From Schmidtea nova (taxonomy: Eukaryota), in assembly GCA_044892505.1 (NCBI GenBank), contig CM097882.1, positions 542,686,001-542,750,000 of the forward strand: a DNA stretch of 64,000 nt, read 5' to 3'. The translations under genes and the position numbers were made by a program. The notes below the pieces were generated by a model. The model saw nothing but the letters and a program-made list of their open reading frames with translations. It had not been told where the DNA came from and searched no databases. This document shows positions 15,161 through 43,449 of this stretch, piece after piece; position 1 is the stretch's first letter; each line of letters begins with the position of its first letter.

Positions 15161-15696
15161 ATATATGTAAATTTGATAAGGGTAATGGTTTGGTTGTTCT
15201 TATTCATGATAATTATATAAAAAGTTAGAAATGGTATTGTTATCTCCACAATTTGAAAAGATTGTAAGTTTTCGTAAGAATGGCAAATTACCACCTTTAA
15301 AAGATGAAACAATATTAATATCTCTACTTCATGATTTAATTTTAAATAACCATATAGATAAGGATATTGTTTATTCAGTTTGGCCTCGGGGATCCCAACC
15401 TACTAAATTATACAGTCTTCCAAAAGTGCAGAAAGATAAAAGTACCTATGAGACCTGTATTGTCAATGATTCAAACTTCACAATATAAGGTTGCGAAGTT
15501 TTTAGAAAGTTTGTTGAAACCCTTGATTAAGACTGAATATGAATGTAAAGATAGCTTTGAGTTTGCCTCTTTTATAGTAAATTTAAATAAGAGTGGGAAT
15601 GATGACTTTATGGTTTCGTTTGATATGATTAGCCTTTTTACAAATGTTCCTTTAATAGAAACGATTGATATTTGTTGCAATTTATGGAGTGTTAAC
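15161..15696 (+). pseudogene. PLE copy 2, N-terminal RT segment, interrupted by the Polinton
   Basis: KLYSLPKVQK / VPMRPVLSMI...YKVAKFL...SFDMISLFTNVPLIETIDICCNLWSVN. Confidence 0.88.
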
Positions 15697-17040
15697 AGTA
15701 GGAGGAAGTGTGGACGGAGGAACAAAGACATATAACATCATCGCGTGTGTGCAGCCAATCAAAATCAAGTGACCCCCGGGGGGATTCTTTTTTTTTGTCG
15801 ACCCCCCAAAAAATTTTTTACACACACAAACGATTAGTCATAAATTTTTTAAGGACATTTTGAGGACACTTTAAGGTCAAGGTCTTCATGAGGCCAAGGT
15901 CATGCCAAGGTCAATTTTTAAGGTAAAACTTTCAAAAATTCAAAGATTTTTCCAAAAATTTAAAAATTTTTTAAAAAACATAAAATTTTACAAAAACATT
16001 TTTTCAAAAACACCAAGTGAGAATTTATCAACATTTATTAATAAATACACATATATATGACAACAATGTTATTCCAACTATGCAATTCTTGCGCTTTTTA
16101 TCTTCCAAATTGGAGACATTGCTTCTTTTGGATCGATTTTATATCCTTGGATGGATATATCAATAAACCCATTTTTATTATCCGTATATTCAACTGATTG
16201 AAATGCATCATGAAATTCGGTGTTCCTGTTGTTGATGAATATTGTTTCATTGCAAGATAATTTCTTGTTGATTTTCGTCAACACTTTATTGATTGAAACA
16301 ACATCTTCTTTATAAATCTGATCAATTAAGTTGGAATATTGCGAAGTCGACAGCTTTACCGGATTTGGGACCTTGAAAGAGATTTCGTTTACCAAGAAAA
16401 ACATTTGGTAATCGTGAAACATCTGAACCGGTCGTAAATCAAATTTGTTTTGAGTTGATTTGTTATCGTTCCTAACTGGTTTCATTTTAATTGGACTCGA
16501 TTTGCTGAAAAGATTTTTTTGCATTTTATGAACAATACTATTTTTGTTTTCTTATTTATACTCGTCATCATCTGTGTGCAGCCAATCAGATTCTTGCACA
16601 CGTCTTGTTAATCAATTGCACATGTCTTGCTAATCGATTGGATATGTATTAATAATTGACTTTGTATGCATGTTGATGATTATGTACTGCAATTTCTTTC
16701 TATATACATATATTGTAAGTTATTTACATATCTATCGCAATTTTATTGTCTATCGCAATTTNNNNNNNNNNNNNNNNNNNNNNNNNNNNNNNNNNNNNNN
16801 NNNNNNNNNNNNNNNNNNNNNNNNNNNNNNNNNNNNNNNNNNNNNNNNNNNNNNNNNNNNNNNNNNNNNNNNNNNNNNNNNNNNNNNNNNNNNTAAAATT
16901 ATTTTCCATTATTATTTTCAATAAATATTCAGCATCAACATTTTATAAAAATTAATTTTAACTACAAAACATCTTTCATAACTCGGTACGTTTTAAGAAA
17001 ATAAATACTTTATAAAAAACACTATAAAAAGATATTTTTA
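15697..17040 (+). repeat. Left TIR, ~1.35 kb, imperfect
   Basis: Reverse-complement match to ~29772-31108, with scattered substitutions and indels. Confidence 0.88.
16078..16524 (-). CDS. TIR-encoded protein of unknown function, left copy (148 aa)
   Basis: Open ATG-initiated frame; near-identical to 30292..30786. Confidence 0.65.
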   Translation of the reverse strand: MQKNLFSKSSPIKMKPVRNDNKSTQNKFDLRPVQMFHDYQMFFLVNEISFKVPNPVKLSTSQYSNLIDQIYKEDVVSINKVLTKINKKLSCNETIFINNRNTEFHDAFQSVEYTDNKNGFIDISIQGYKIDPKEAMSPIWKIKSARIA

Positions 17041-18639
17041 CTTTAAAATGACAAACAACTCATAACATCACATAAAAATCAACAAAATTAAAAACAAATC
17101 TTTTGGTTTTCGTTAAAAAATTTATTAAAATAACAAAGTGCCGGTTATATTTTCTGGTTGCACATGCAAGTCCCTCAGCATTTCCCAAACTATCATCTAT
17201 TTGGCATCTGGCCATTCGGTATCTGGCCATTCGGCATCTGGCAGTTCGGCATCTGGCAATTCAGCATTTTATTTTTACTTTTATTTTTACCAACAAAATT
17301 TTGTTTATCATCAGCGTTTGTTAATGCTTTTTTATTACTTTTTACATTAAACAACTGATGATTTTCGCTGGTTATGTGAAATTAAGGCACAGTGTAGATT
17401 TTATTATATAAATAACAATCAAGATATGATTGGTGTGATAATTTAGTATCTTTGATTGATATATCTTTAGCCTTCATACTAGCTTCGCTACCCAATAAAC
17501 TGTAGCATTTAGGTCTCAAAAATATCCATTCATCATATCCAAGGCCTTTACTCTCATCCTTAAATTTACCAATCACCGAGTCAAGGTTTCTTGAATATAA
17601 TGAATGAGTCGGATCATAATTTGATGTATCTAATAGATTATCTCTTATCATTGCTGGTAAGAGACAATCTAATTTACAATTTTTTATTTCTACGAAAAAT
17701 GAGTCGGTGTCCCTACCAATAATATTGATTTGGCAATTAAATTCATTCCTGTATTTCTCCAAATCAATATACTGCAGCTGATACATGCGCAGTTTGGATA
17801 GATCTAGCACAGTTTGACCTATGTAACTAGGTCTATCCAAACACACCGACTCTTTTCTCAATAAAACTGGAATTAAATTATTATCTATTTTTGTACTCTT
17901 CCGAAAAGCCGGTTTAGAGCAATATGTTAATAGTTTTTGTGCAGAATTGCACAATCTTAAATTAATTCGTTTTTTAAGGTTTTCTACGGTTTTACCGTAT
18001 AAACTGTTATTTAGTAGTTTATAATAGTTTTTATCAAGTTTATTTGTGGCTGAAGCTCTTAATTGTGTATTTGTGTCAATATATTTTTTGAATATATTAT
18101 TTTGATTGAATTTAATGGCACGATGTACCTTAGATATATTGACTCCTATATTAATAAATAGTTGGAGAAGCCTCCAATGCAGAACGTAGTTTTTCTTGGA
18201 GTGGTGCGTGAGCAACAGCTTCTCCACCTTTGAATGTGGCGCGCACATCTTTTCAGCTGCAACTGGAAAATCATCCAATTTGTGGTGAATCGACGACGGT
18301 ATATCTAAATCTACTTCTAGGGTATAACCATATGTAAGTAAATCTAAATCTAATGTTTCACACTCTAATAATATATTATTTAATAAAATATCATCCGTTA
18401 CAGTAGGTAGATGTGTGGAGCCGGGAACAAAGACATTATGACTCATTGCGTGGGTGGCGTGGGCAGAAAAAAGACCCCTCCCTCTCGGGGGGGGGGGGTA
18501 GAAATTTTTTTTTGATTACTCAAAAATTTTTTTCAAATTTTTTTTTCGCGCCAAAAATTTTTCTTCAAATTTTTTTTCGCGCCAAAAATTTTTTTTTACA
18601 AAATTTTATTCGCGTCAAGAATTTTTTTTTCAAATTTTT

Positions 18640-18805
18640 TTTAACACAAATTTTTTTAACACAAATTTTTTTAACACAAATTTTTTTAACAAATTTTTTT
18701 AACACAAATTTTTTTAACACAAATTTTTTTAACACAAATTTTTTTAACACAAATTTTTTTAACACAAATTTTTTTACCACAAATTTTTTTAACACAAATT
18801 TTTTA
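18640..18805. repeat. Tandem repeat, 15-bp unit acaaatttttttaac x ~11
   Basis: Read directly from the sequence. Confidence 0.9.
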
Positions 18806-18974
18806 ATTTTTATGACTCATCGATGACTCACCATTATGACTCATCGATGACTCATCCTTATGACTCGCCATTATGACTCACACCATGACTCATCGATAAC
18901 TCATTTCAATTTTCAAATAAGTCACGTCATCGATAACTCATAACAAACTCATTGCAATCCATGTGCAACATTAA

Positions 18975-19330
18975 CAAAGACATTTAATTGCCAAATTTCT
19001 TACCAAAGACAATTCATTGCCAAATTTCTTAATAAAGACATTTCATTGCCAAATTTCATAACAAAGACATTTCATTGCCAAATTTCTTAACAAAGATATT
19101 TTAAATTACTTAACAAAGAATATTCATTGTCAAATTCTTTAACAAAGATATTTCCTTACCAAATTTCTTAACAAAGACATTTCCTTGCCAAATTCCTTAA
19201 CAAAGACATTTCCTTGCCAAATTCCTTAACAAAGACATTTCAATGCCAAATTCCTTAATAATGACATTTCCTTGCCAAAACCTTTAACAAAGACATTTCC
19301 TTGCCAAAACCATTAACAATGACATTTCAA
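18975..19330. repeat. Tandem repeat, ~29-bp unit aacaaagacatttc(a/c)ttgccaaatttctt x ~12
   Basis: Read directly; one further copy near 19490-19520. Confidence 0.88.
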
Positions 19331-21501
19331 TGCCAAAATAACTAAACAGAGACACGAACAAAACATTTACTAGCAGAACCCTAATAGCAGAACATCTTTT
19401 GTGATGGTTTTTATCTGCCAAAGCTTATTACTCGAACATTAATTACAATTCAACTTCATTCAGCATCATTTGATAAAACAACTACATTTCATTGCCAAAA
19501 TCCTTAACAAAGACATTTCAATACCCATGCAGTGTAAGCAACATGCTAAAAAAGATAGTGCAATACATATGCCGTCTTTACAGCTTTATCTAAAGATTCA
19601 CTTACAAATTGACAAGAGTCAATAAACTTAACTGTAAGTGAATCTATTCGCGCAAAAAGTGAAAGAAACTTTTCACTGGTAATTGGAATAACGCTAATAT
19701 TCCACGACTCATATTTTGAAAGCCCGAATTTGAGTATATGATGTAGATCATACCCTCTCAAATTATGGAAGACAACCGGTAAGGTATGTCGGATTTGCCT
19801 CGAAGCATTACATTTCATGCAAGCAGCGCCAATGAATCGACCAGTAAAATGATCATGATCCCTAACTGGGTTATTTAAAATTTTCTTACACAAATATCAG
19901 TTAGTAGAAGCATCAAAAATTAACTTATCTGCGTCACTAAAAATTATTTTCGTTTGATAATTAGGGTAAAAGAAGGGTGTTACAATTCTCTTACTAATAT
20001 TTTCTACATCTGAAAGAAACTCATCAACGCAATTAAGACCTAAAAAGTGTTTATAAGTTTTTTCGCCGGTAAAATTATTGACGAGTAACAAGCCAGCAGA
20101 AATCGATAAGTGACGTTGAAAGTATTTAACATCTTTTGGTAATATTGCCTCAAAGTCGGCGTAAATAACAAAGGGAGGAGTGAGATTTTTCGCCCATACC
20201 TTAAATTCAAGATGTTTATTTTTAGGCAAAGTGTACAAAGTTGTACCTAACTGATCTTTAGCACATAAATCTACATGTCTATTAGAAGAATCATCGGTTC
20301 GAAAACCGTTAAGACATCTGGGACACCATTCATTACAAATACGGACGGCTGTAATTGCAGGATTTCTGCAATTTTAAAATTTATTTAAGTTAGTTATTGC
20401 AGCATAATGATATGTCTGAGAATTCTCAAGTAATAATAAATTAATTGGTTTTCCCCCTACAACTTTGGAACGATAAATTATATCTATGAAGGGGTGTTTC
20501 ATTACTTCCTCCTTATTTGTGATATCTACTAAAGCTTTTTCGTCATAAGAAAGGACGTTAATTGCTTAACCGGGATTTTGCATTTCAAATTTAGAAATGC
20601 TCGAAAGTTTCATCGGCATTTGTGAAGGATCAAATTTAAGATCTGAAAGATTATAGGATGAAGGTCTATTTCGAGTTTGTCGGATAATTGTATCATATTT
20701 TAAAATAGCCAAGACGCTATACACGAAACAAAAGTTGTCATTATTAATTACGTTAACAATAAAAAATTTATTTTTTAAAGTTTTTGGGGTATCTATAAAT
20801 TTTCGGCCGCTTAACCTAGTTATTTCCGCAAATTTTGTGACAATAAAGCTGATATACTCTATTTTATTATTGGTCCAGTTACTCCCCTTCTGATTAATTC
20901 TAATAATTTTTTCGTTTAATAAAGCAATACCTTCATTAATGAAATTATCGCTCATGGGCCTGGTAGAATTTGAAATGACAAAAGATTGTAATTCGTCATC
21001 TTTTTCAAACTCCACCTTCAGACAAAATTAAATTTTGACTGACCCCATTTGACTAATAACAGTATTTAATTTATTTAATAAGACATCGGGAACCGATACA
21101 ATTTTTAATATTAAGGATGAAACATCCATTTTAATAATCGAATGGTTACTGTTTAAATCAGTACTTATTTCTGGTTCTAGTGAACCGCATTCGATCTGAT
21201 TATTAATAATATTATTATTATTTGTTGACATAATAATTATTGATGTGATATTATTATTTTCATTTGGCGACATATTAATTAATGAAGTGATATTATTATT
21301 TTCATTTGGTGATATATTATTTATTGATGTGTTATTATTATCATTATTAACATTATTTGAATGTATTATAGAATACGAATTAATTATTACAGCAGTAATT
21401 TCATCCTCATCGTCGGAAATATTAATTACTTCATTTTTAATAAATTTACAAGGAATTGATTCCTCGTTTAAAATTTTTCGTTTATTGTTGTTGCTGGAAA
21501 A

Positions 21502-21549
<48 letters not shown>

Positions 21550-22503
21550 TCTATTGTTGTTTGAGAAATGATTGACGTTGTTGTTAGAAATATTATTATT
21601 AATATTTATATTGTTGTTAAGTATATTATTTTGAATATTAATTTTAATATTATTATAAATAGCTTTTTTAGAACCAATATTCTGAGTTAAATGATATCGG
21701 TGTTTATCATAAAACTCAGGACATGGAAGGGTTTCATTGATTTTACAAACAGGGCAAATGAGGAAGGTGACTCTACTATATTTATACGAATAGTACTTTT
21801 CCGTAATTTGATGGCAATCATTATCTAAAGTACTATTACAGTATAAAGGGTAATTTGAACCTTTAAAATAAAAAATAATGATAAAATATTTATAAAATTA
21901 TTATAAAATAATAGATAAAATTATTATAAAATAGTTATAAAATAATTGAAAAATAATTGAAAAATAAACATAAGTTTAACTTATTACGGAATAATTTAAT
22001 CTATTTTATCAGTTTAAACTATTACATAATAGGATATTCAAATGTCAATACAAAAAAAAGTTTTAGTTTGAAAAGATTACGTCACTGTGCGAAGTGCGAT
22101 TAACTTAATATGATAATTTATATTTAATGATTATGTCACCGTATCTTATATGATAACGTGTTTTAATTGACATTAAAAGTATTGAAGGGTAAGTATTAAT
22201 ATCAACTTTTAAAAGATTATATAATTATTATAACTAAATTAATATCATTAAGTTAGTANNNNNNNNNNNNNNNNNNNNNNNNNNNNNNNNNNNNNNNNNN
22301 NNNNNNNNNNNNNNNNNNNNNNNNNNNNNNNNNNNNNNNNNNNNNNNNNNNNNNNNNNNNNNNNNNNNNNNNNNNNNNNNNNNNNNNNNNNNNNNNNNNN
22401 NNNNNNNNNNNNNNNNNNNNNNNNNNNNNNNNNNNNNNNNNNNNNNNNNNNNNNNNNNNNNNNNNTGATGGCCTATTATTAATAAAAACATGAAAACGCC
22501 AAA

Positions 22504-22550
22504 CAATAGAAATATATTTCAAGGACATAGTCCTCATCATCAGTCTACCA
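22504..22550 (-). ncRNA. Type-I hammerhead-ribozyme-like motif with canonical core
   Basis: tggtaga-CTGATGA-t-gaggac tat gtcctt-GAAA-tata-TT-tctattg: stems I and II can pair; palindromic ATATAT stem III. Confidence 0.65.
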
Positions 22551-23115
22551 TTATAATCTAAATCAAATACTATATACGGAAACAGTAATGGGGTAATGGC
22601 TATGATTTAATGNNNNNNNNNNNNNNNNNNNNNNNNNNNNNNNNNNNNNNNNNNNNNNNNNNNNNNNNNNNNNNNNNNNNNNNNNNNNNNNNNNNNNNNN
22701 NNNNNNNNNNNNNNNNNNNNNNNNNNNNNNNNNNNNNNNNNNNNNNNNNNNNNNNNNNNNNNNNNNNNNNNNNNNNNNNNNNNNNNNNNNNNNNNNNNNN
22801 NNNNNNNNNNAATCCAATAAATAATATTATTTTCAATAAGATATTAAATATTTTTTATTAAAACTTTTATTAATACTTTATATTATTATTGAAAATTAAT
22901 ACCATTACGTTTCTTTTATAAAATATAATATTACTTTTATTTTATTGAATGTAATACTAATATAAAAAAATGATATAGTTATTTGAAAATATTATTGAAT
23001 ATATTCATAGTTAATTGAGAATATTATTTAATTAAGGGAAAATATTAATATTAAAATATCATAAAAACTACAGCAAAACTATTATAAAACATTTTATAAA
23101 AATTAAAATTCTTAC

Positions 23116-23634
23116 ATTTTGTTCTACTATTCGTCACGGAATTTATCGATGCATTATTTAAAGAATTTCCACCATTTGAAGCCTTATTAAAATTCGTCGC
23201 GGATACATTTGGGGCATTATAATTAAAATCCATCGCCGATACATTTGGGCATTTAAATTTTCTATAAAACATGAAATAAAATAATAAATATACAAATATA
23301 ATTTTACCGTTTCTATAAAAACCATTATTGTTTTCATTTCCCGATACATTACTAGATACGTTTGGGATATTAAATTCCATCGCCGATACATTTTGAGCAT
23401 TTAAATGTTCTATAAAACATGTAATAAAATAATAAATATACAAATATAATTTTACCATTTCTAAAAAAACCATTATTGTTATCGTTTCCGGATACATTTG
23501 TAAAATTTCGCATTTTAATTCTTGACATTCTTAAAATAAATTACGTTTAAAAATAATAATAAAATAAAAAATAAATTCTTACCCTTGAATCCATTGATGT
23601 TGGTATTGTTGATATTGTTGATATTGTTGTACAT
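23116..23634 (-). pseudogene. Four short Asn-rich exons separated by 53-, 46- and 46-nt GT-AG introns; probable spliced leader of pPolB
   Basis: ATG at 23634 (MYNNINNINNTNINGFK); introns 23530-23582, 23410-23455, 23262-23307; donor at 23115. All junctions are phase 1 after two 1-nt frame corrections. Confidence 0.55.
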
Positions 23635-23684
23635 AGTTAATTAACGATTATAAGATGAATAAGAAATTTTGGGTTATAGTAAAA

Positions 23685-23755
23685 AGTGACTAAAATATTG
23701 AAAACATATCTTTATATAAGATATATTGCATAATATTAATTGAACCAATCAAAAT
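23685..23755 (-). promoter_or_regulatory. Pol II-type core promoter candidate: inverted CCAAT, TATATAAA, Inr-like TTAGTC
   Basis: gattggtt ... tatataaa, then ttagtc about 27 nt downstream; lies upstream of the ATG at 23634. Confidence 0.4.
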
Positions 23756-23960
23756 CGTTTATGAGAAGAAAAGATTCGCTCGCACACATACAACATGGAT
23801 TTACCAGCTGTGTGTGTATTATTATACACGTATGTTATACATATATGTTAACTCATTATAATTTACATTAATTCACATGATTACTCATGCACGATGACTG
23901 CAGATGTCATGCATTTCAATTGCAAATTTTGTATTTCAAAGCAATTAATTAAGCATATAA

Positions 23961-24380
23961 TTAATTTTTTAAATAATCTAAAGCCCCCACCAAACAACCT
24001 TTATTTGCACAATTTGTATGATCTCGATATGGGCATGAAATATTGTCAGGAAAAGATTCAACTTCTTTAATATTATACTTAATTAATTTTAGGGAGGGGA
24101 AATATCTTTTTAAAACAGCAAGTTTATCTTGATCAGTGACATAGAAAATTGCACCAACATCTTTAATTACTTTCAAAATACAAGTTGGACAAGAGTGATC
24201 TTCACCTTCATACCATTCTAATCTATCAGGTTCACCAATTCCAGCCCAAAAAGGAACATCATTATATATCCAATATCTTGGCCGAAAAATATTATTAACA
24301 TTCATAATACATAATTCTTTAATAATTATCCCACCGCAATTATCATTATAACCATAAATATCAATAAAATAACAAGTCAT
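23961..24380 (-). CDS. Intact 139-aa ORF; possible DEDD/DnaQ-fold nuclease-like Polinton accessory protein
   Basis: YFIDIYGY...IIIKELC...LEWYEG...CPYRDHTNCA pattern. The fold assignment is inferred. Confidence 0.5.
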   Translation of the reverse strand: MTCYFIDIYGYNDNCGGIIIKELCIMNVNNIFRPRYWIYNDVPFWAGIGEPDRLEWYEGEDHSCPTCILKVIKDVGAIFYVTDQDKLAVLKRYFPSLKLIKYNIKEVESFPDNISCPYRDHTNCANKGCLVGALDYLKN

Positions 24381-24419
24381 TTTTCTAAAACATTTATTAA
24401 ACTAAATTTTTTATACTTT

Positions 24420-24794
24420 TAACATTGAATTAAGCCATGCAAGACAATGTTGACCACAAGTAATTGTTAATGGATGTTAATACCGAATTCGATTATATAC
24501 AATCGGCTTACCCAATGTTTGTAGTTTACTAACTAATAAACCAGGGTAATAGCATCCGAAGGGATCGAATGCATACACCTTGCTTGGTTTCACATATACA
24601 GCAATCGAATGTTCTCCTCCTAGAGTAGATGATTGAGTATTGACGACTATGGCTTGGTTGACATCTAAATTAGGGATTTTGTCTAGTGGATATACTCCAA
24701 TAAATTCATTTCCCAATAAATGTTTACCAATTCGATTAACCTGAATAGAACTATATAAATAGATTTATATAATAAATAATAAAACTTACTCCAT
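24420..24794 (-). pseudogene. Adenain-like cysteine protease with a 39-nt intron (24751-24789) and a nonsense codon
   Basis: Spliced MDSIQVNRIGKHLLGNEFIGVYPLD; catalytic H (GEH), D (FDPFG), C (TCGQHC); TAA sits at the oxyanion Gln position. Confidence 0.88.
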
Positions 24795-24835
24795 GATAAA
24801 TTGTTAACTTTGACTTGTACATTTATATTGATAGT

Positions 24836-26049
24836 TTAAACCAAAACTGTTCGATTAGCAGTAAATTGAATTTCATTTTCAAATACTCCATATATTATTA
24901 CATGTACTGGTTCTTCAATAGCTTTAGAAAACTTTATATCCAATCTCAAATTTCCATTTTGAGGTAATTGACTTTGATTTAAATCGAAATCCGGAGCCAA
25001 AACAAATGTAAAGAAAGGGTATTTGTTTTTAAAATCGGCTAGTGTTATACCACAATTCAAATTCTTATCTAAATATCCCATAAACTAAATACCATCGACT
25101 GCATATATGTAGTACAATAATTATCATTTTCAAAATCTTGAGTATATGTTTCTCGATAATCAGTGTTTTTCGATAGAGATAGGGAAGTTACATTGAAATG
25201 TTTGAATTTCGAACTTGATGCATTATATGATCCATTGTATTGAGTTTCACTTTGAAATGCGACCAGAATGAAATTTGGCATTCTTCGATCTCCAAATATT
25301 TGTTCCTTGTAGAAAGATGATGCACCTTTACCAATAGCAAATTGTACTATTTCTTTGGTTTTCATTGGATAAATAGCGTGTTTTGAGTTAAGTCCAACTT
25401 GATGTCCAGCTAATACAACTGGAACGCGACGAATCATTAACTTTGCATCAACTAATTGACATTTTGGTGCACCGTTTTTTGAATATAGTGATAGTGCAGA
25501 ATCAGAACGCTTCAGTCTGATGTGAACATTGACACCTGGTAATAAATATTTCGGTTGATCCATGAAATCCAGTTGTAGAGATGAACAGATTGTAAATAGC
25601 TTTGAGTCTTTGATCCACGCTTTTCTCTCGTCAGAATCTCCATATCCCATTGGAGTAAGACAAGTTTCTTTAGTATAACCAATTTAATTTAAAATAGTTT
25701 CGATTATTGCCTTGTGTGCATATGTATTGTTTCCACCTTCAATCTTGATATTATTAAAACCAAGAATGGCGTCCTTGAATAGAGTATGAAACATAAAATT
25801 GTTTGGTATAACATCATCAGTTTCAGACAAATCTTTTATATCGGTATTTACAACTTTTATTTGAACTGTTTGTAAAGTATCATTCAAATACAAATATTCA
25901 GATTGAGATCCGTTAATGTAAAATTCCACATCATTTCTACCGCCTGTAATAGAATTCATGGGACATACTTCTTCAAATGCACCATATTCAATGACTGCTT
26001 GAGGAGATGGTCGGTCGAAAAGACATAATTCAGATTTAACACAAATCAT
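24836..26049 (-). pseudogene. Double jelly-roll major capsid protein (Polinton PY type), one stop and one frameshift
   Basis: CVKSELCLF...EFYING...HTLF...ETILN; QLDFMDQPKYLLPGV; FFTFVLAPD...GNLRLDIKF...VIIYGVFEN. Confidence 0.9.
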
Positions 26050-26438
26050 TTTGAAAATATAGTTTCATGTCCTTTCATTCGATTGTTTATATACCTTCGA
26101 TGCTTTTTACCTCTAGGTCCCACTTGTTCCGGTACAGGTTCAGGTTCATCTTTATTAAACATACTTGTTACTCCAGGAATCATACTAGTCACAGTCGACA
26201 GTACTTTACCAATTGCAGACAAGGCATTTGTTTTCAATTATGGTTGTATTTTCTGATCATTCATGATCACATCTTTGGCAGTTTTCAAACCAAAACTACC
26301 TATTCGCTTAAGAATTGGTAGTGCAAATCGTCCTATAGTTTTTAACCAACCTGATCCATACTGTTTACCTGCAAAATAAGGTAATTCCCCACCAGTTTGG
26401 CTATTACTATACAGTGAAATTATATCTGGATTAATCAA
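26046..26438 (-). pseudogene. Conserved Polinton virion-type protein with Gly-rich motif and amphipathic helix; internal stop at 26238-26240
   Basis: QTGGELPYFAGKQYGSGWLKTIGRFALPILKRIG, continuing in frame into MKTNALSAIGKV. Confidence 0.65.
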
Positions 26439-27240
26439 TTAATTTACGAAAATGTAATGTAAAATGTGTTTTTGAATATTTTGGAAAATTTATTAATTTA
26501 CCACTATCGTCACGGATATTTATTTCTATATTGTTTATACATGAGGTAGAAATAGGTAAGTACATTGAATTATCTATTACTATTTGTACAACTTCATTCT
26601 GTTCATATTTTTCGATCCATACCGATTTCAGTAGAGGAACCAGAGAATCAACGACAATTACTGGTTCAATAATGTTACTGTAAATGAACATTTGTTGATG
26701 ATGAACAAGAATTTTAGGTTTCACAGTCTCATCAATAAGGTTTCGATCTCTATGCGTTTGTTTAGCTAATCCTAAAGTATTGACCAAGTTTTTATTGAAT
26801 GTAACTTCACTAATATTATCATTGAGACTGAATTGGAACCATTTATTAATATCGAAAGTTTTAAAGATATGGGAGCAATTGAATGATAAATATTTAGATA
26901 AATCTTCTAATTGCACTATATACAAATCATTTGCAAATGTAAATGTATCTTCAATTTCTGCATCATAAGATATTGTCATCTTAATATCTTCTTTCAAATA
27001 ACTATTCGGTTCAAATAACACGAACTTTAATTGATATTCTTTCAGTGCACTTACAATTTTAAGTCGATTACTTCCCATTCGCTTTGCATCTTCAATATTT
27101 TCAAATGTAATTGTATATGGAGTAAAATCACAATTAATATTTAAACAGTCATTGTTAAAATACATACTACAATGAGCATTCAAAATTTGGTTGGGAAAAT
27201 TATAAATTCTTTCAAAATTGTTGATGATGAATAGAACATG
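26431..27240 (-). pseudogene. Minor capsid protein (penton/PX), N-terminus deleted
   Basis: C-terminal FIYSNIIEPVIVVDSLVPLL...YLPISTSCINNIEINIRDDSG...TLHFR signature. Confidence 0.85.
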
Positions 27241-28292
27241 TAGTATTGTTTATCCACCATTTTAGTTTTTAATATTTTTTGAATTCTAAATACAGTAGGC
27301 GGAGGAATAACTTGTAATTCTTGATCGTAAAATTTCTCACTAACTACATTATTGTCAGAGTCAGAAATAACATACATGACAGGATCTTGGCTAGTATTAA
27401 TTTTTGAGATCTGAAATACTTCATCACTCCAATTACTATCAAAATTTTTGATGAATGGCGAAGCACTAATCTTACTAATTTGAACATGATCACCAATTTT
27501 ATATTTCGGTTTCTTTATAATCGTTTTTAATTTGTGAGATTCAGTATTTTTCGTTGAAACATCAACAGGTCTCAATCCATTTATACCTTTGTGTGACGAA
27601 TGATTATAACTATGTATTATTTTTGACAGTACATTTATCCATGTTTTATTACCTTGATGAACAAAATACTTTTTCAATCGATCTCTTAATGTACGATTAA
27701 ATCGTTCAACGTGGGCGGCTTTGAATTGAGAGAACACAGAATAATGATTAACCCCGGCCAAAACTTCTTTAACTTTACTATTGTAAAATTCTTTACCTAA
27801 ATTATAATTAACAATCAACAAAATTAGTATATATTCTTACCCAAATCAGTTTGTAAATTCTTTGGACGACCGGACTTAAACATAGTTTTGATTGCAACAG
27901 CCATTTCATTTGCTAATTTAGTTCTAGTAGGAATAGCCCGAGCAAATCTTTTGAAAACATCGATACATGTTAAAATATATTTATATCCCTTGTTAATATT
28001 TGAATAGGGTATAATTTCCATCAAATCCATTTGCCACAAGTCATTAATGCCATATGTTTTATATGCTCTTGTTGGAAATCGTTTCAATGCCGGTTTGTTT
28101 AGACTCTATGCCAGTTGCCCCGATAACCATTTTTGAGTTTCTTTTTTCGAGTTTGCGACGTTTTTCTTTAGCTTTTTGACTCCACCGAAACTGGCGGGAT
28201 CTTTTGGGTTTGTCCATATCTTCTCCATTACAACAAGAAGAATTAAAATTCAATTTAAGATTAGGTAAATGAACAATCGGCAATTGACCCAT
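27241..28292 (-). pseudogene. Retroviral-like (rve) integrase with partial chromodomain and a 44-nt intron (27797-27840)
   Basis: KDPASFGGV; WQMDL (D); QTDLG|KEFYN (D, split by a GT-AG intron); HVERFNRTL (E); NWSDEVF; FRIQKILKT. Confidence 0.92.
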
Positions 28293-28304
28293 TGTTTATG
28301 ATTT

Positions 28305-28490
28305 TGAGGATTTTCCTAGTAATCCTACACCACCTAATAAAGATAATGCTAATGGTAGCAATGCCGCAATAAACCCTCCGTGTTGTTTATATATTATTTT
28401 GCGCATTTGTTTTTATTTTTAGTATTTACTAGTGATAATAATGGTTTCTTGTGTTTGTTCAACACATTTTTATTTGATTTACTAATATTA
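28305..28490 (-). pseudogene. Small basic/hydrophobic Polinton protein (QxGGF motif), N-terminus deleted
   Basis: LNKHKKPLLSL...KQHGGFIAALLPLALSLLGG; homolog at 44520-44720. Confidence 0.6.
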
Positions 28491-28751
28491 ATCATCAATA
28501 ATAATTACATCACCACTTCGTAATCTAGACGACCAGTTTTTATCGAATCCTTTTATTATTGTCATTTTAATCTTACAGAATTGATCTTGAGTCATTCCAT
28601 GTTCATCATCAGCTCCCATATGCCAATAAAGTTTGTTAAATTTTGATTTGAATAATTTTGATTGTAATAATTTACAAACAAATAAAGTTTTTCCACTTCC
28701 ACTTGGACCGACAATTTGATAAACTGCATCATTTCTTAACTCCATTTTCAA
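28488..28751 (-). pseudogene. A32/FtsK-like packaging ATPase, truncated after Walker B
   Basis: IVGPSGSGKT (Walker A) and VIIIDD (Walker B), then stop. Confidence 0.85.
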
Positions 28752-28841
28752 AATATTAAGAGTTTATGGATATTGTTTATATTTGTATTAATTAATTGTT
28801 ATACTTTTACGAAAATTATTTAAAAAATAATCAGTCTTATA

Positions 28842-29310
28842 ATGTTAAGCAACATAAATTACAAATGAAAATGTTCTGTTTCTCGTATGAAATTTCCAAA
28901 TGGTAAGCCACAGCAGATTGTAGATAGGAAAGGTAAGTATTCTATAATATTTTTCAAATCCGGTAAATGTAGAATATTGGGATGTAAACAACCTCTAAAA
29001 GATCAAGATTTATTATATGAAATAAGTGATTTACAAATACAATCGATTACAGTTACTACAGATATTGGGAAATGTGTCAATTAACATGAATTGTCACAAA
29101 ATCTCATGTTCTTATGAGCCAGAAATATTCCCGGCATTGAGATATATAAAGTATAATCCTTTATGTGTAAACATATTCAACAGTGGTAAAGTTGTTATAC
29201 TCGGTATAAAAACGTTAAACTATCATGCTTTGGTTGAAGAAATAATTAACGATATCAAATCGGTTATTGATGACGTAGAATTCTTGAAATTTTTGTTACT
29301 TGTTACGTAA
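28842..29310 (+). pseudogene. TATA-binding protein (TBP)-like gene, two nonsense codons and one frameshift
   Basis: Repeat 1: MLSNINYK...IIFFKSGKCRILGCK. Repeat 2: IQSITVTTDIGKCVN(L)HELSQ...SYEPEIFPALRY...VNIFNSGKVVILGIK. Confidence 0.8.
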
Positions 29311-29404
29311 TAAAATACAGGCTTTTGATTGGAATACGGTGTGTACGAATAACCAGTATATATAACAACATCATTTTCATTACATTTATATCAACAGTAA
29401 AAAG

Positions 29405-29731
29405 ATGTCTCTTAATAAAACGAATGGTAAGGATTGATTTTTATGTTGAAATTTTAATTAATGCGTTCTTTTGTTTTTAGAAAAACTGATGGGCGGTCTG
29501 CTTGAAAAAATGGAGGATTTGTACTCGAAAATTATGCGCGAATTGGTTTACTGCGTTCCAGAGCTCTTTTCTTATAAAATATTGGCATTAACCGGAATTG
29601 ATCTCAACAAGGTGTTGCTCGACCATCAACATAATATAGAAGAAGAAGAATGCAGCGCCAGTATTATCTGTGCCTATAGATGCGAAAGTTCCGTCAATAG
29701 GATTCAGAAATACCACAAATGGTTACTTTGA
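29405..29731 (+). CDS. Unknown protein (~90 aa) with a 54-nt intron (29427-29480)
   Basis: ATG exon MSLNKTN g|gtaag ... ttttag|aa joins in frame; the intron contains an in-frame TGA. Confidence 0.6.
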
Positions 29732-29771
29732 GAGGAGTTAAGAAACTTTTTAGGACAATAAATATTTTATA

Positions 29772-31108
29772 TCTAAAATGTCTTTTTATTGTGTTTTTTG
29801 TAAAGTATTTATTTTCTTAAAACGTACCGAGTTATGAAAGATGTTTTGTAGTTAAAATTAATTTTTATAAAATGTTGATGCTGAAAATTTATTGAAAATA
29901 ATAATGTAAAATAATTTTANNNNNNNNNNNNNNNNNNNNNNNNNNNNNNNNNNNNNNNNNNNNNNNNNNNNNNNNNNNNNNNNNNNNNNNNNNNNNNNNN
30001 NNNNNNNNNNNNNNNNNNNNNNNNNNNNNNNNNNNNNNNNNNNNNNNNNNNNNNNNNNNNNNNNNNNNNNNNNNNNNNNNNNNNNNNNNNNNNNNNNNNT
30101 TGCGATAGATATGTAAATAACTTACAATATATATATAGAAAGAAATTGCAGTAGATAATCATCAACATGCATACAAAGTCAATTATTAATACATATCCAA
30201 TTGATTTACAAGACATGTGCAAGAATCTGATTGGCTGCACACAGACGATGACGAGTATAAATAAGAAAACAAAAATAGTATTGTTCTTAAAATGCAAAAT
30301 ATTTTCAGCAAATCGAGTCCAATTAAAATGAAACCAGTTAGGAACGATAACAAATCAACTCAAAACAAATTTGATTTACGACCGGTTCAGATGTTTCCTG
30401 ATTACCAAATGTTTTTCTTGATAAACGAAATCTCTTTCAAGGTCCCAAATCCGGTAAAGCTGTCGACTTCGCAATATTCCAACTTAATTGGTCAGATTTA
30501 TAAAGAAGATGTTGTTTCAATCAATAAAGTGTTGACGAAAATCAACAAGAAATTATCTTGCAATGAAACAGTATTCATCAACAACAGGAACACCGAATTT
30601 CATGATGCATTTCAATCAGTTGAATATACGGATAATGAAAATTGGTTTATTGATATATCCATCCAAGGATATAAAATGGATCTAAGAGAAGCAATATCTC
30701 CAATTTGGAAAATAAAAAAGCGCAAGAATATCATAGTTGGAATAACATTGTTGTCATATATATGTGTATTTATTAATAAATGTTGATAAATTCTCACTTG
30801 GTGTTTTTGAAAAAATGTTTTGTAAAATTTTATGTTTTTTAAAAAAATTTTGAATTTTTGAAAATTTGAAAATCTAACCTTAAAAATTGACCTTGGTGAC
30901 CTGGGCCTTAACTTGTCCCTAAAGTGTCCTCAAAATGTCCTTAAAATCTGACCTTAAAAAAATTTATGACTAATCGTTTGTGTGTGTAAAAAATAATTTG
31001 GGGGGTAGCAAAAAAAAAGTACCATCGGGGCGTTACTTAATTTTGAATTGATGCACACACGCGATGACGTCATATGTCTTTGTTCCCCCGTCCACACTTC
31101 CTCCTACT
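29772..31108 (-). repeat. Right TIR
   Basis: Mirror of 15697-17040. Confidence 0.88.
30292..30786 (+). CDS. TIR-encoded protein, right copy (164 aa)
   Basis: Open frame, near-identical to 16078..16524, with a different C-terminus. Confidence 0.65.
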   Translation: MQNIFSKSSPIKMKPVRNDNKSTQNKFDLRPVQMFPDYQMFFLINEISFKVPNPVKLSTSQYSNLIGQIYKEDVVSINKVLTKINKKLSCNETVFINNRNTEFHDAFQSVEYTDNENWFIDISIQGYKMDLREAISPIWKIKKRKNIIVGITLLSYICVFINKC

Positions 31109-32124
31109 GTTAACACTTCCCTTCATAATATTATTGATGTTGTTCTTTTCGTAAACTTTTGACATTTGCTACTTCTAATGTCCATTTTATTTTTGATAAT
31201 CAATGGTATAAGCAAATTGATAGTGTTGCTATAGGCTCACCTTTAACTTCTACACTGGCATCTATTTTTATGTCAAGTTTAGAAAATAAATTTATAAATT
31301 GTAGTGTAAATAAACCCTTAGTATATAAACGTTATGCTGATGATATTTTTCTTGTATTTAAGAATAAAGAACATGTTAAGCCTTTTTTGTATTATATGAA
31401 TAATTTGCATAAAAATATTAAATTTACTTTTGAAGAAGAAATTTATTCTAAAATATCATTTCTTGATTTGTTGATTGAAAAGAAAGAGAAACATTTTGAA
31501 ACTGAAATTTATAGGAAAACAACGGATACTGATTTGTATACATCACCGGAAAGCTTTTGTGATTTTAAATATAAAAGAAATAAGGGGATTGGTTTATCGT
31601 TCTTGGACATTGCCGTCAACTTATTGTAAATCTATAATAAGTATTGATACATTACTTAAATTACTACAGAATAATGGATATTCAAAATGTTTCTTGCAAC
31701 GAATGGTGAGTGAAACTGTTGATAAGTGTATTAATAAGTTGAATGTGATTGATGAAAAAGTTTCTCCTGGTGTTGATTCGTTTAATACCCCTGATAGTGC
31801 TCCTTTGATTGAAACAGATGATGTTGTTATGGGAATGAATGATGGTGTTGATTCTAATAATAATAATGAAATAAATAAAAGTAACTTGAATGATTGCATT
31901 GGTTCTGTTATAGTTTTAGAAGAAAGAGTAACATTTTTGAGCATAATAAGACTTTCAAGAAGAGTATTGATATTTCTAATTTCAAAATACTTTTTAGGGG
32001 TTTTAAAAATTATTATAAACGTGTGAATTGTGAGGCTTTGATGATAAAATCATTTAATCCAAAAATAAATATACAAAATGCAATATCTACATGCATTTTG
32101 AGAGTTTTAATTAATTTTTACTAG
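31109..32124 (+). pseudogene. PLE copy 2, remainder of RT and partly deleted GIY-YIG region
   Basis: FRKLLTFATS...YKQIDSVAIGSPL...YKRYADDIF...ISFLDL...YRKTTDT; ends EALMIKSFNPKINIQ. Confidence 0.9.
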
Positions 32125-37079: not shown

Positions 37080-39868
37080 TTTTTTGATTATAAATCTTAC
37101 TTCAACAATATCCTTTGATCATTAAAATGGATGCATTAAAACGTTTCTCTTAAACAATCAAGTGTCAACGCATTGCGTTCAGCTCCAATGTCCCCGTCTA
37201 CAGTAATACGGCTGTTTTGTTAATAATTTTCAACATATTTAAAACACAAATGATCTCAGATTCTTCGGCTGTATGTTTCTGATTCTCATCGAAATAAGCG
37301 GTAACTGTTACAACAACTTATTTTACTGCTTGATTTTAGTATGCTTCTATTAGGTATTTTAATTCTTTTTATAATACTTCATTCTTTTTTATCCTTAACA
37401 GTATCACAAATCAATCATTTCTGTTCTGTAAATGTTATGAAACCAAAGGTGACGTGGTTCCTTTGAAATGTTGCAATGATTTTAACTTTTCCATGTTGAA
37501 ATACTTTGACATAAAAAGAGGTACTCAAAGATTAATACTCATAACATGTTCAGATAAATGAAAGAAGATAAAATTTTGGTTGAGAAAAGTTACTTAAACT
37601 AACAAATGTTAACCAAAATCGAACGTTGTTATTGTGTATATAATGATGTTTTGTCGTGACTGCAGCTTCCTGAACTCGGTGTGTAATTTATATTTTTTAT
37701 TAACAAGTCAATAGGTTCATCCAAGGTAATGAGCGCAGAAGCCCATCACATATATGGAATTCCCAAGAAATTCAAAGGCTCAAATCAAATGTGACTTTGC
37801 CCTAAACTGCTGGAAAATTCGGCAAGAAGAAAAACGTCAAGTTTAAGATAGACCATCATATAGTCAAAAAGAGTTTGACATTGATACCCTCTAAATCATC
37901 AATGTCTTGTCACAATCGGCTTGAGTAATACCTTCCCAGTTTGATGGTAATTCGCAAGTGTTGTTAAGAATTTCTAAAGACGTGGCAAAATTATAAGGAA
38001 AAATATCCTTAAAATCAACAATAGTCCCGGTGAATTCTGATCGAGTCAAAGTCAAACAAGTAAGAGTCTTAACAGCGTCATTTAAGCTGGGATTAACAAA
38101 CTGAAAAGAATCGATGAATTTATTGGTTTAATCACTGACCCTTGCAGACAATGTAAAGAATCTTTCACTAGTTGTTAGAATGCAAGCAATTCTCCAAGTT
38201 GTAAAATCAGCAAACCATATTTAAGAATATGATGCAAGTTATAGCATTTTAAATTATGAAAAATAACAGGCAAGAACTTGTATAATTACATGTATTACAA
38301 GCAGCTCCCAAAGATTCACCAGTGTAGTGATCATAGTCTCTAACTGGTCGTACTAACGTTTTCTATCAAAGATAACAAATAGTAGCTTATGAAAAAGCTT
38401 GTTGATTGGTCCAAGTCATAAAAAGAGGTTTCTTGTAGTTATTTTTGTAAAAGGATAAACAATAGTTTCAGACAAGTAACTAATTTCAGTAAGAGCATTA
38501 GTCACACAATCAAGACCTAAGAAAGTATTTTAAATCTTTTCGTCAGTGAAATTATTTACAAGTTAAACACCGGCAGAGATAGGGATATGTCTTTGAAAAT
38601 ATTTATCAATTGCAGGTAAGATTGCCTCCAAATCGGCGTAAATAACAACAGGTGGGGTAATTGTTTTGCCCAAATTACTAAATTGTAAATTTTTATTTCT
38701 AGGCTGAGTATAAAGAGTTGTGCCCAATGGACGTTTAGCCCAAAACTGTCGATGTTTGAAAACTTCTGGGTTTGTCAAGGAATCAAGAAAAGCATCCTCA
38801 ACATTAATAGCAAGTCCGGGATTTCTAGCCTCAAATTTCAGAATATTACAAAGTCTCATTGGAAAATCAGAAGGGTCAAAGTTAAGATCAGAAAGATTAT
38901 AATTATTGCCCTATTTCTATTATTTTCTATTTCATCATATTTTAAAATAGCCAAAATGCTATAAATAAAACACAATTCATTAGAATTTCTTAAATTTACA
39001 TTACAATGTTTAAGTTGAAGAAGTTGAGGGATTTCAATATGTCCAGGCTCGCTCAATCAACTAATTTTGGCAAATTTAGTCAAAACAAAATGAATTTCAT
39101 TAACTTAATGGTCCAATTGCTGCCCTTATCATTAATTAAAACTATTATTTTCATTTAAAAGAGCCATGCCCTCATCTAAAAAGGTAACACTCAATTTGTC
39201 TTGCAAAGTTTGAAATGATGAATGATTGAAATTCACCATCTTTTTCAAATTCTACGTCAATACAAAATTGTAATTGGACAGACGCCATCTCAGTAATTAA
39301 TTGATTTAATTTATCGATTAACATTTCGGGTAACACTAAAGTTTTTAACTTTAAATTTACAACAATGTCACAATGGCATGAGACTTCAACAAGTCATATT
39401 TGACGCTGGGAAAATTAGGAACAAGAAAACCACCATATTGAACATCTATGGTGGCTTCGTGATCAGAAAGAATAACTATATCAGAAGGAACAATATCGTC
39501 GTCAGAAAGAATGACTATTTCGTCATCACTTAAGTAAATTATCTCATTTGATTTAAATTTCTTATTTGGGGTGGGACCACAGATTCTATTTTTTCTTTCA
39601 TTTTTAAAAATGATTTTATTATTATTATTAATAAAATCATTATTACCAGATGGTAATTTAAAAATAGATTTTTTCTATGTTTGAAATTGAATCAGGTGAA
39701 CCTTATGATTACTATAAAAGTCACTATACGATGAAAGACTAGTCATTTTACAAAAAGGGAAAATTAGGTAAGTGATGCGATTATAGGTGTGTGAATAATA
39801 CATTTCCATCGACTCGTAACAATTTTCATCATGAATCGAGGAATTACAATATGAGCGATATAATGCAC
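37080..39868 (-). pseudogene. pPolB of copy 2
   Basis: NVNLRNSNELCFIYSILAIL; VIYADLEAIL; DHDHYTG; KGYFPYNF; YLKLDVFLLAE. The 3' limit is approximate. Confidence 0.85.
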
Positions 39869-39900
39869 CTGTAAACGAAAGAATTATTAAAAAAATATGC

Positions 39901-39901
<1 letters not shown>

Positions 39902-39965
<64 letters not shown>
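39902..39965. repeat. (TA)n microsatellite; others at ~35725-35750, 45556-45590, 47467-47495
   Basis: Read directly from the sequence. Confidence 0.95.
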
Positions 39966-39969
<4 letters not shown>

Positions 39970-40073
39970 AATCAATTATCATACATAAAGTGTGTATATA
40001 CATACATAAATATTAATAAATAAATATCGGTTAAAATGTTAAATGATTTAATAAAATATAGATTTCGTTAAAA

Positions 40074-40547
40074 ATGTATCAACTTAAAAGTAAGTTTAAT
40101 TATCTTAAAATGATTATTTTAGGATCGAACAATAAGAGCAAACAAGAAATAATGAAAATTATTCTTGAAGAAAATTCTATTTTGGCAGCGAATCTGGTCA
40201 GAAATCCGGAAGTACAATTTCTTCAATACTCAATAGAATATTTGAAATTTCCAATCATTTATTCATTTAAAGTATATATTTATTTACTAAAAATCAATTT
40301 TTAATGTTTTCGATTTAGAAACCTGTTACATTGAAACAATGCATGAAAATTTTCAAGTGGAAAAAATTGGTGAAATTGATAGAAGAAATATTTAAGATAT
40401 TTTGTTAGCAATCAATAAAGATTGTAATTTAGAAAATCATGAAGAAAATTCAATGTATCAAATCAAGATAATGATACAAAGTTTTGAAGAATCAAACAAT
40501 GTAGCAAGACTAGTTTGGCAGACTATAGAATCAAATTTATATGAATA
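40074..40547 (+). pseudogene. Possible small spliced gene inside copy 2 (33- and 47-nt intron candidates)
   Basis: a|gtaag...ttttag|ga and |gtatat...tttag|; the last exon has an internal stop and a phase mismatch. Confidence 0.3.
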
Positions 40548-41274
40548 AACTTTATTTATCAAATCTTTTCATTGCAAATCTTTATTGAATTATTTTTATG
40601 ATTATTTAGTAACAAGTAATAATTATTTAAAGTGACATTTTAAAAATTATATAATTGATATTATTAACATGTATTTTAAAATAATAATGATTTATTTATA
40701 AGTAATAATTAATTAAAGTGTTAATTATTAAATTGTTATTATTCAAATAGTTTAAAGTGACATTTTAAAAATTATATAATTGATATTGACTGAATAGTCT
40801 ATTTAACTTTATAAATTCAAATTCAAATTAAATAAATATTCAATTAATTTGAATATAAATTTACAAAGTTAAATATTATTAACATGTATTTTAAAATAAT
40901 AATGATTTATTTACAAGTAATAATTAATTAAAGTGATATTTATTAAATTGATATTATTTAAATAGTTTATTTAACTTTATAAATTTAAATTCTAAATAAA
41001 TATAAAAATTTTTAATAAAACTTTTGAAATAAAATATTAGCTTACCAAAATTGGGATTAAGTAAAAAGTGATTTTGAAATGAATTTTTCGTTTATATACA
41101 TTACTATTACATGATACACAAGACATCAATGAAACCATGGACACACTCGTGCACATAAATTAAAATACCGTAATATTAAACAAAACAAATTGAAATAAAA
41201 TTGAAAAAAATATGAACTAAAAATAATACAATTTTTTACAATACAAACAATTATTTATTAAACATTTTTATTAA

Positions 41275-41621
41275 CCACACTATACAGTGCTGAACACATG
41301 TTTGTCATTGGATTCTGGTATCGAATTCTGTTATGTTCAATTGGCATCAACATTGAAGAAAGTTTTTTTTATCTATAACGGCCTATAGTAAAATCTCATT
41401 GAATCAAATAAGTGTATTTTATCGGGTTCAATCCAATGTTCAGCATTAAGATTTGATGATTGAGTATTTACAATCAAAGCTTTGTTCACATCAATATATG
41501 GAATTTTATCCAACAGAAAAACATCAAAAAATTCCGATCCCAAAAATTTTTGAGTAAAATATTCAATCTGAATAGAACAATTAAAAATAAAAATTTAAAT
41601 TAAATTAAAATCTTATTTCAT
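41275..41621 (-). pseudogene. Adenain-like protease of copy 2 with a decayed 39-nt intron (41578-41616)
   Basis: MN|SIQIEYFTQKFLGSEFFDVFLLDKIP; splice sites read ATAAG and TTG. Confidence 0.75.
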
Positions 41622-41649
41622 TTGATGTTAAATTTTATTCAAATTAGTT

Positions 41650-43440: not shown

Positions 43441-43449
43441 AATAGTATA

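Follow-up and report, generated by a model that had tools for sequence, protein, structure and literature searches.

A stretch of 64,000 nt of the Schmidtea nova genome (GenBank assembly GCA_044892505.1, contig CM097882.1, forward-strand positions 542,686,001 to 542,750,000), hereafter the window, contains a broken copy of a Maverick/Polinton element embedded in eukaryotic, AT-rich DNA. An earlier annotation of this stretch (the initial annotation) had proposed that the gene for the protein-primed family B polymerase (pPolB) of the element gets its start codon from small upstream exons, and this issue is examined here across the related elements of the same genome. The element is 15,412 bp long, with AGTAGG termini, terminal inverted repeats (TIRs) of ~1.3 kb and a 6-bp target-site duplication (TSD), GTTAAC. 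It thus combines the long TIRs, 5′-AG termini and 6-bp TSD of Mavericks/Polintons, and a matching 6-bp TSD is also found in the two other elements whose two ends were located (2/2). Its identity to the other loci of its lineage, called lineage A, is ~93%. It was apparently inserted into a LINE-like (long interspersed nuclear element) sequence, recognizable at 15358–15696 and 31138–32026 with an RVT_1 fragment at 31138–31629.

The gene set comprises pPolB, an rve integrase, an A32-like ATPase, an adenain-like protease, a DJR-like capsid candidate and a TBP-like protein. PF03175 is recovered on the pPolB pieces of the window (E 1.7e-10) as well as on outside homologues. The integrase matches PF00665 at E 3.7e-7, slightly below the curated cut-off because its gene is split (see below), and outside rve integrases are up to 77% identical to it. 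The packaging ATPase matches PF04665 above the cut-off in one lineage-A locus (E 1.3e-6), and homologues of the protease match PF00770. The capsid candidate, a 406-aa open reading frame (ORF), has Atlas neighbours at 0.98, of whose members 15–30% carry the DJR-like PF21738; sequence searches of the ORF itself against Pfam and PDB gave no match. The TBP-like protein (~156–162 aa; window 28869–29310, plus strand; L121:1729–2214, minus strand) occurs in lineages A, B and C, matches PF00352 above the cut-off (E 1.1e-14) and, given the predicted TATA-box promoters of the element, could serve the element as its own transcription factor.

The window copy is dead. Its pPolB gene has four in-frame stops between 21483 and 19561, ~180 codons are replaced by ~1.15 kb of other sequence (about 19560–18402) followed by one further stop, and leader exons 2 (74 nt) and 4 (146 nt) are not multiples of three. 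Three 1-nt corrections, two in the leader and one near 21020, had been called for in the initial annotation; the copy is far more broken than that, and what interrupts the frame near 21028 is an in-frame stop rather than a frameshift. A second, more decayed Maverick relative (copy 2) lies at about 37700–44800 of the window. The positions of the features are collected in Table 1.

Table 1. Features of the Maverick element and of its relative in the window (window coordinates)
Feature	Position	Strand	Description
Maverick/Polinton element, lineage A	15697..31108	.	TSD copies at 15691-15696 and 31109-31114
Leader coding exon 1	23583..23634	-	ATG; 52 nt; ends in phase 1; donor GTAAG at 23582
Leader exon 2	23456..23529	-	74 nt, frame broken here; 75 nt in 18/18 typed lineage-A loci
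Leader exon 3	23308..23409	-	102 nt; bounded by AG/GT
Leader exon 4	23116..23261	-	146 nt, frame broken here; 150 or 189 nt in lineage A
Long phase-1 intron	21861..23115	-	GTAAGA...TTTTAAAG; 1255 nt; two masked stretches inside
Cys/His domain, predicted two-zinc module	21664..21860	-	C|-C-H-C then CPxC...H-x2-H; opens the long pPolB exon
Asn-rich low-complexity linker	21140..21663	-	Length variable between lineages
Terminal protein (TP) domain, then vOTU protease domain	20380..21139	-	Bounds approximate; contains stops in this copy
Rest of pPolB (C2H2, exonuclease, polymerase)	17277..20379	-	Interrupted by stops and ~1.15 kb of other sequence
Predicted RNA polymerase II core promoter	23683..23718	-	TATA-like box 23718-23711; initiator-like TCACTTT 23689-23683
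Protease start	24751..24794	-	ATGGA exon of 5 nt (24794-24790); GT-AG intron of 39 nt (24789-24751), phase 2
Integrase-core intron	27797..27840	-	44-nt GT-AG, phase 1; splits the Gly codon of TDLG-KEF
Small ORF adjoining the TBP-like gene	29405..29480	+	ATG exon of 22 nt (29405-29426); GT-AG intron of 54 nt (29427-29480)
Copy 2, lineage-C-like, degraded	39660..41100	-	TATA/TCACTTT at ~41071; non-coding exon donor 41045; acceptor 40992

Leader exons, acceptor and split cysteine codon

The long exon of pPolB begins, as the initial annotation had it, right after an acceptor, ttttattttaaAG|GT, ending at 21861, and lies in a stop-free frame of the minus strand (stop to stop, 21897–21028); the first Met of the frame is found 196 codons downstream of this acceptor, at 21273. 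The donor AAT|GTAAGA at 23115 and the phase-1 ends of the upstream exons also check, as does the corresponding arrangement in copy 2, where tttacAG|GT (acceptor at 39869) precedes an exon that starts at 39868 and encodes a homologous Cys/His peptide; the ATG-bearing exon of copy 2 is unrecognizable. The claim that no ATG occurs over ~195 codons holds for the window copy and fails in the family, since most copies have an in-frame Met, at codon 20 in 28/30 loci and at codon 20 or 21 in 60/60 loci of lineages A, B and C. The Met of these copies behaves as a conserved internal residue.

Genome searches covered the 1.25-Gb assembly. A query with the 66 N-terminal residues encoded by the long exon gave at least 150 matches, many with open frames of 1,370–1,490 aa, and the copy-2 peptide likewise at least 150, many with open frames near 1,300 aa. 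From these, 20 loci each were sampled for lineage A (~91% identical to the window peptide), lineage B (~70%) and lineage C (~65% identical to the copy-2 peptide); they were picked mostly for long open frames, and counts over Maverick copies, which share descent, are therefore not independent. Exons were typed one by one for length, phase, stops and ends in 56/60 loci (A 18/20, B 19/20 and C 19/20), leaving out three loci with the first exon outside the fetched stretch (L037, L056 and L120) and one in which the anchor failed (L046).

Conservation of the acceptor across the family, a check proposed with the initial annotation, is evident: its AG is in register in the best 30/30 genome matches (window included), in 60/60 long-frame loci of lineages A, B and C, and in 19/30 older copy-2-like loci. 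A stop-free, phase-1 chain of GT-AG exons leads from an ATG to this acceptor in 54/60 long-frame loci, which supports, on sequence grounds, the proposal that upstream exons supply the ATG and join the long exon at 21860. A broader pattern combining acceptor and domain gave 2,666 further genome matches (control 0), and four of these loci, representing three more lineages with unrelated leader sequence, have an unchanged exon layout.

The coding leader exons measure 52, 75, 102 and 150 nt (once 189 nt) in lineage A, and 52, 102 and 180–228 nt in lineage B (exon 3 of 180, 192, 207, 216 or 228 nt), while lineage C has a non-coding first exon and a single coding exon of 79 nt. Differences in exon length are always multiples of three and those in intron length are otherwise, the short leader introns (46/47/50, 52/56, 48/49 and 47/48/50 nt) varying by steps of 1, 3 or 4 nt. 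The long intron spans 708–1106 nt in typed lineage-A loci and 708–2,096 nt across typed loci. The peptide encoded by the leader exons is Asn-rich, 26–126+ residues long and unconserved. Upstream of these exons, a TATA-like box lies 28–31 nt before TCACTTT in six lineages, sampled at one locus each, an arrangement suggestive of a promoter for RNA polymerase II (Pol II).

Several observations concern this arm of the element. Leader exons 2–4 with introns 2–3 (window 23116–23529) resemble tandem duplications of a single exon-plus-intron module, and symmetric phase-1 exons would permit growth or shrinkage of the leader. The long pPolB intron of lineage C and copy 2 harbours a small antisense gene that has GT-AG gaps of its own (L125:8878–9420, antisense to pPolB; window 40062–40304, plus strand). 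At many loci the pPolB arm is duplicated in inverted, head-to-head orientation, as in L188 and L187 (1–8337; arms of 4,023 nt, 99.5% identical); such loci resemble fold-back defective genomes of a linear protein-primed replicon. A 211-nt inverted repeat between 22629–22839 and the right TIR was rejected as an artefact, masked N stretches overlapping on both sides.

The junction between leader and long exon splits a codon. In 56/56 typed loci and 4/4 further loci, from six lineages, this codon is T|GT or T|GC and reads Cys, its first base being the last base of the leader (the final T of leader exon 4 in the window); if unspliced, the codon would read Gly. The split Cys is the first ligand of a conserved Cys/His domain of ~65 aa. 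The initial annotation had described an Asn-rich, metal-binding leader at the TP end of the protein: the leader is indeed Asn-rich, but it is the long exon that encodes the predicted metal-binding domain, to which the leader adds only the first base of the first Cys, and an Asn-rich linker separates this domain from TP.

A profile search with the Cys/His domain in 1.84 billion protein representatives retrieved 55 proteins, 29 of which were aligned. The column of the first Cys (C3) holds Cys in 24/29, the other five homologues not reaching it, and the remaining ligands are kept to similar extents, namely C10 in 26/29, H15 in 27/29, C21 in 26/29, the next Cys in 28/29, and the last Cys and both His in 29/29. 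Many of the aligned homologues have their start Met two to four residues ahead of the first Cys. The internal Met at the codon-20 position is kept in 19/29, most of which start earlier; since many homologues start upstream and yet keep it, this Met appears to be a conserved residue of the domain and behaves as an internal one. The first Cys is contiguous in P0009, which belongs to the cluster of an outside pPolB 55% identical to lineage A, and at four loci from other lineages of this genome the Cys codon is whole, an AG in phase 1 lying 2 or 5 nt ahead of it. P0152, a natural contiguous homologue, gives a confident fold prediction (pLDDT 89).

The ligand pattern points to two zinc sites. None of 32 members of the domain scored over the cut-off in Pfam, and fold searches returned weak matches (best Foldseek E 1.3, to a C2H2 protein; best Z 2.3; best Atlas score 0.80); no clear match to a known fold, Pfam or the Atlas emerges, which by itself does not establish a new fold. 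Among 51 outside homologues with H-x2-H, 13 end soon after the domain with G/S-K/N plus a hydrophobic run (P0159, P0162, P0164, P0169, P0170, P0172, P0173, P0175, P0177, P0180, P0184, P0186 and P0196), and these protein sequences suggest read-through into an AT-rich phase-1 intron in other hosts. Tandem domains, in two or three copies, occur in P0143, P0163, P0165, P0166 and P0188.

The assignment of an N-terminal TP and an active vOTU to pPolB relies on a lineage-C homologue. Its model (pLDDT 80) matches a Y-family little finger (Z 8.5, root-mean-square deviation 2.5, 92 residues aligned) and then an OTU fold (Z 7.5, root-mean-square deviation 4.2, 106 residues aligned); these scores are middling (Z 6–8.5), and the little-finger-like part precedes the OTU. 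The best viral match of this protein is an adintovirus PolB (E 4e-18), and the Cys and His motifs of the vOTU align in 5/5 proteins.

Candidate introns elsewhere in the element and the search for spliced sequence

Gaps with GT-AG ends are not restricted to pPolB. Lineages A, B and C share the 44-nt gap of the integrase with the window, and the intron-split motif has 2,204 matches in the genome (reversed-pattern control 0). The contiguous motif has two, both from a degraded lineage ~71% identical; these divergent Maverick loci with an intronless integrase, L131 and L132, offer an outgroup for dating intron gain. In outside integrases, TDxGxEF is contiguous in 120/120 (the best 120 of 182). The protease frame has no usable Met of its own, and the pattern ATG-RA|GTAAG...TAG| that would provide one is matched 5,942 times (control 0), with introns of 37–41 nt whose ends are fixed and whose interiors diverge; the spliced start, M-D/N-S-I-Q, resembles that of outside proteases. 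The small ORF next to the TBP-like gene has an unchanged layout in the three loci compared, one per lineage (A, B and C). The capsid, ATPase and TBP-like frames start with their own Met and are apparently uninterrupted.

The short gaps are host-sized, since candidate AT-rich GT-AG introns of 42–56 nt are found in 6/9 host CCT loci examined. With their GT-AG ends, pyrimidine-rich acceptors, host-like size and a reading frame restored on removal, they have the sequence features of U2-type introns.

Direct traces of splicing were sought in reads and in the genome. The stretch occurs in four sequencing runs of a single study, none of them recorded as RNA. These runs, of unlabelled type, cover the leader exons and the long intron of a lineage-A locus at similar depth, which fits DNA, and these DNA-like runs gave no GT-AG among the 15 joints listed of 411. 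A probe for processed, intron-less copies with the lineage-A/B junction had two matches in the genome, both in unrelated sequence. Of the 13 genome matches to a contiguous-Cys probe, none has a preceding leader exon; five resemble acceptor-mutated copies, four have an acceptor further upstream and four are of ambiguous type. No related loci with DNA were found in viral_contigs or metagenome_contigs.

Probable expression through splicing and rival readings

What the DNA itself shows is a chain of exons with its phases, the dinucleotides at the splice sites, a TGY codon that is split, and gaps of this kind in thousands of copies. Cis-splicing of a Pol II transcript very probably supplies the start codon, the leader and the first Cys of pPolB, and these sequences are best read as a Maverick clade that has introns and depends for its expression on the Pol II and spliceosome of the host. 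A family with introns in its polymerase, integrase and protease genes likely needs the host splicing machinery. Host Pol II would start at the TATA/TCACTTT promoter, and the host major spliceosome would remove the AT-rich introns of 37–56 nt together with the one long intron, so that the upstream phase-1 GT-AG exons would contribute the start codon, the Asn-rich leader and the base that opens the first Cys codon. The predicted protein would then run from leader, Cys/His domain and Asn-rich linker to TP, vOTU, C2H2, exonuclease and polymerase. The order TP–vOTU is that given for polinton pPolBs in the available part of 10.1101/2024.03.18.585575, which also proposes vOTU cleavage between TP and vOTU. 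As the leader and the Cys/His domain precede TP, they would depart with it if the vOTU cuts between TP and itself, the N-terminal part being freed together with TP as proposed for other polintons. Since the element copies itself as DNA, introns would be inherited, and they were probably gained in this clade over long residence in intron-rich nuclear genomes. A minor isoform starting at the internal Met is possible alongside the spliced product.

Some points weigh against this account. The leader peptides are unconserved between lineages, selection being visible only as frame preservation, part of which is due in lineage B to a 12-nt repeat unit. Stops occur in the leaders of 2/56 typed loci (L031 and L067), and L031 also has a GA donor. 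The Met at codon 20–21 may allow a shorter protein, unspliced or alternatively started. Zinc binding is a prediction for which the fold search gave weak zinc-finger matches only. Finally, the choice of loci for long frames, added to shared descent, reduces the weight of the counts.

Because the relatives have a Met at codon 20–21, the argument for a cis-spliced start is drawn from the Cys/His residues conserved ahead of this Met and from the Cys codon that is split. Initiation of pPolB at this internal Met, from a promoter within the 'intron' and with the upstream exons forming a separate small gene or remaining untranslated, would agree with the near-constant presence of the Met and with the gene callers that begin several outside homologues there; it would, however, deprive the domain of four conserved residues (C3, C10, H15 and C21), the leader chains are stop-free up to the last donor, and the integrase and protease gaps would be left unexplained, so that such a start is improbable. 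Trans-splicing occurs in several invertebrate groups, and a strong T-rich acceptor with a Met 19 codons later could be a spliced-leader site followed by the translation start. This proposal is harder still to uphold, given the in-phase T|GT donor conserved upstream in all six lineages, which restores a conserved Cys, and coding conservation that begins at the acceptor, ahead of the Met. That the gaps stay unspliced, being bypassed by programmed frameshifting or read-through or belonging to defective copies served by rare intronless helpers, has the two intronless integrase loci in its favour and is equally implausible, because the gaps have fixed GT/AG ends with variable interiors and lengths and frequent stops, both intronless loci are degraded and ~71% identical, and near-identical copies with open frames of 1,300–1,480 aa and perfect TSDs are numerous in the intron-bearing lineages.

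Known systems, implications and neighbouring features

The spliced Maverick envisaged here shares with Mavericks/Polintons (Polintoviricetes; adintoviruses) a size of ~15 kb, long TIRs, a 6-bp TSD, pPolB and an rve integrase and, as far as the available parts of the literature describe them, an A32-like ATPase, an adenain-like protease and the TP–vOTU–exonuclease–polymerase order; its DJR-like capsid candidate would correspond to their major capsid protein. It differs from described Mavericks by the extra N-terminal Cys/His domain and Asn-rich leader of pPolB, by the TBP-like gene and, within the same limits, by GT-AG introns in pPolB, integrase and protease. Intact vertebrate Mavericks have no introns, in agreement with Kapitonov and Jurka 2006, according to the accessible portion of PMC8097293, and nematode Mavericks have intronless core genes and introns in cargo genes, according to that of bioRxiv 10.1101/2022.07.12.499685. 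The trait of intronless core genes is absent here, and the fixed introns would represent a departure from it. No published report of fixed spliceosomal introns in Maverick core genes was found, though Repbase/Dfam could hold earlier exon annotation; the accessible portions of PMC10748475, PMC8502044, PMC6431247, PMC8532177, PMC11296320, PMC12220804, 10.64898/2026.10.13.758929 and 10.1101/809541 contain none.

Spliceosomal-type introns within polinton-like elements are known from dinoflagellate maverick-polinton-like proviruses, which contain introner insertions (PMC11957031). In the part of that work available, these are mobile introner copies, mostly acquired after integration, whereas the present family has intron positions that stay the same from lineage to lineage and in thousands of copies, and that are needed for core reading frames. 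The other precedent, invoked in the initial annotation, is the E2B region of mastadenoviruses, where a protein-primed polymerase also takes its start codon from a small upstream exon. That likeness stands, and the parallel stops there: in mastadenoviruses a single 9-nt exon is shared by Pol and pTP, which are separate genes (c13193–13201 in the HAdV-A31 table, as given in the accessible part of PMC2794291), whereas the present element has 1–4 private coding exons of 49–228 nt, a fused TP–vOTU–Pol gene, an intact vOTU dyad and an integrase. The link would be one of analogy, two systems working alike with homology unsupported, and since introns also occur in integrase and protease, splicing appears as an element-wide trait rather than an adenovirus-specific device.

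Searches for Mavericks and their annotation rely on ORFs, so that an intron-bearing family would be mis-annotated or scored as broken. If the cis-splicing account is true, expression is tied to the nucleus and to a spliceosome able to handle introns of ~40–55 nt, host range and horizontal transfer could be limited by the need for splicing, and the junctions would be simple markers of true Maverick expression in RNA data. Adenoviruses are thought to descend from polintons, and the family would offer a living parallel to their acquisition of splicing in replication genes. A bolder and rather doubtful extension is that a whole Maverick clade of many hosts depends on the spliceosome for polymerase, integrase and protease, that a new two-zinc pPolB domain marks this clade, and that the element is switched between silence, transposition and particle formation, e.g. 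by cell type, through the retention of introns or the choice of leader.

Other features of the window and genome were noted in passing. A perfect inverted repeat of 1,097 nt with a 34-nt spacer (window 981–3208) contains mirrored frames of 329 aa without Pfam match and may be either a fold-back element or an artefact of the assembly. A C-terminal piece of the CCT/TCP-1 chaperonin (profile ~347–488) is present at about 70 loci of the genome; its dozens of copies are dispersed, some of them lie in frames over 1,400 aa and many form pairs 4–5 kb apart, which suggests capture by a mobile element. The window also contains a mariner-like transposase with inverted repeats (5673–6425 / 9940–10656), a proteasome subunit exon (49556–50035), a RING/TRAF zinc-finger frame (51590–52147) and pieces of a Tc5/DDE_1 (pogo-like) transposase (59387–60595).

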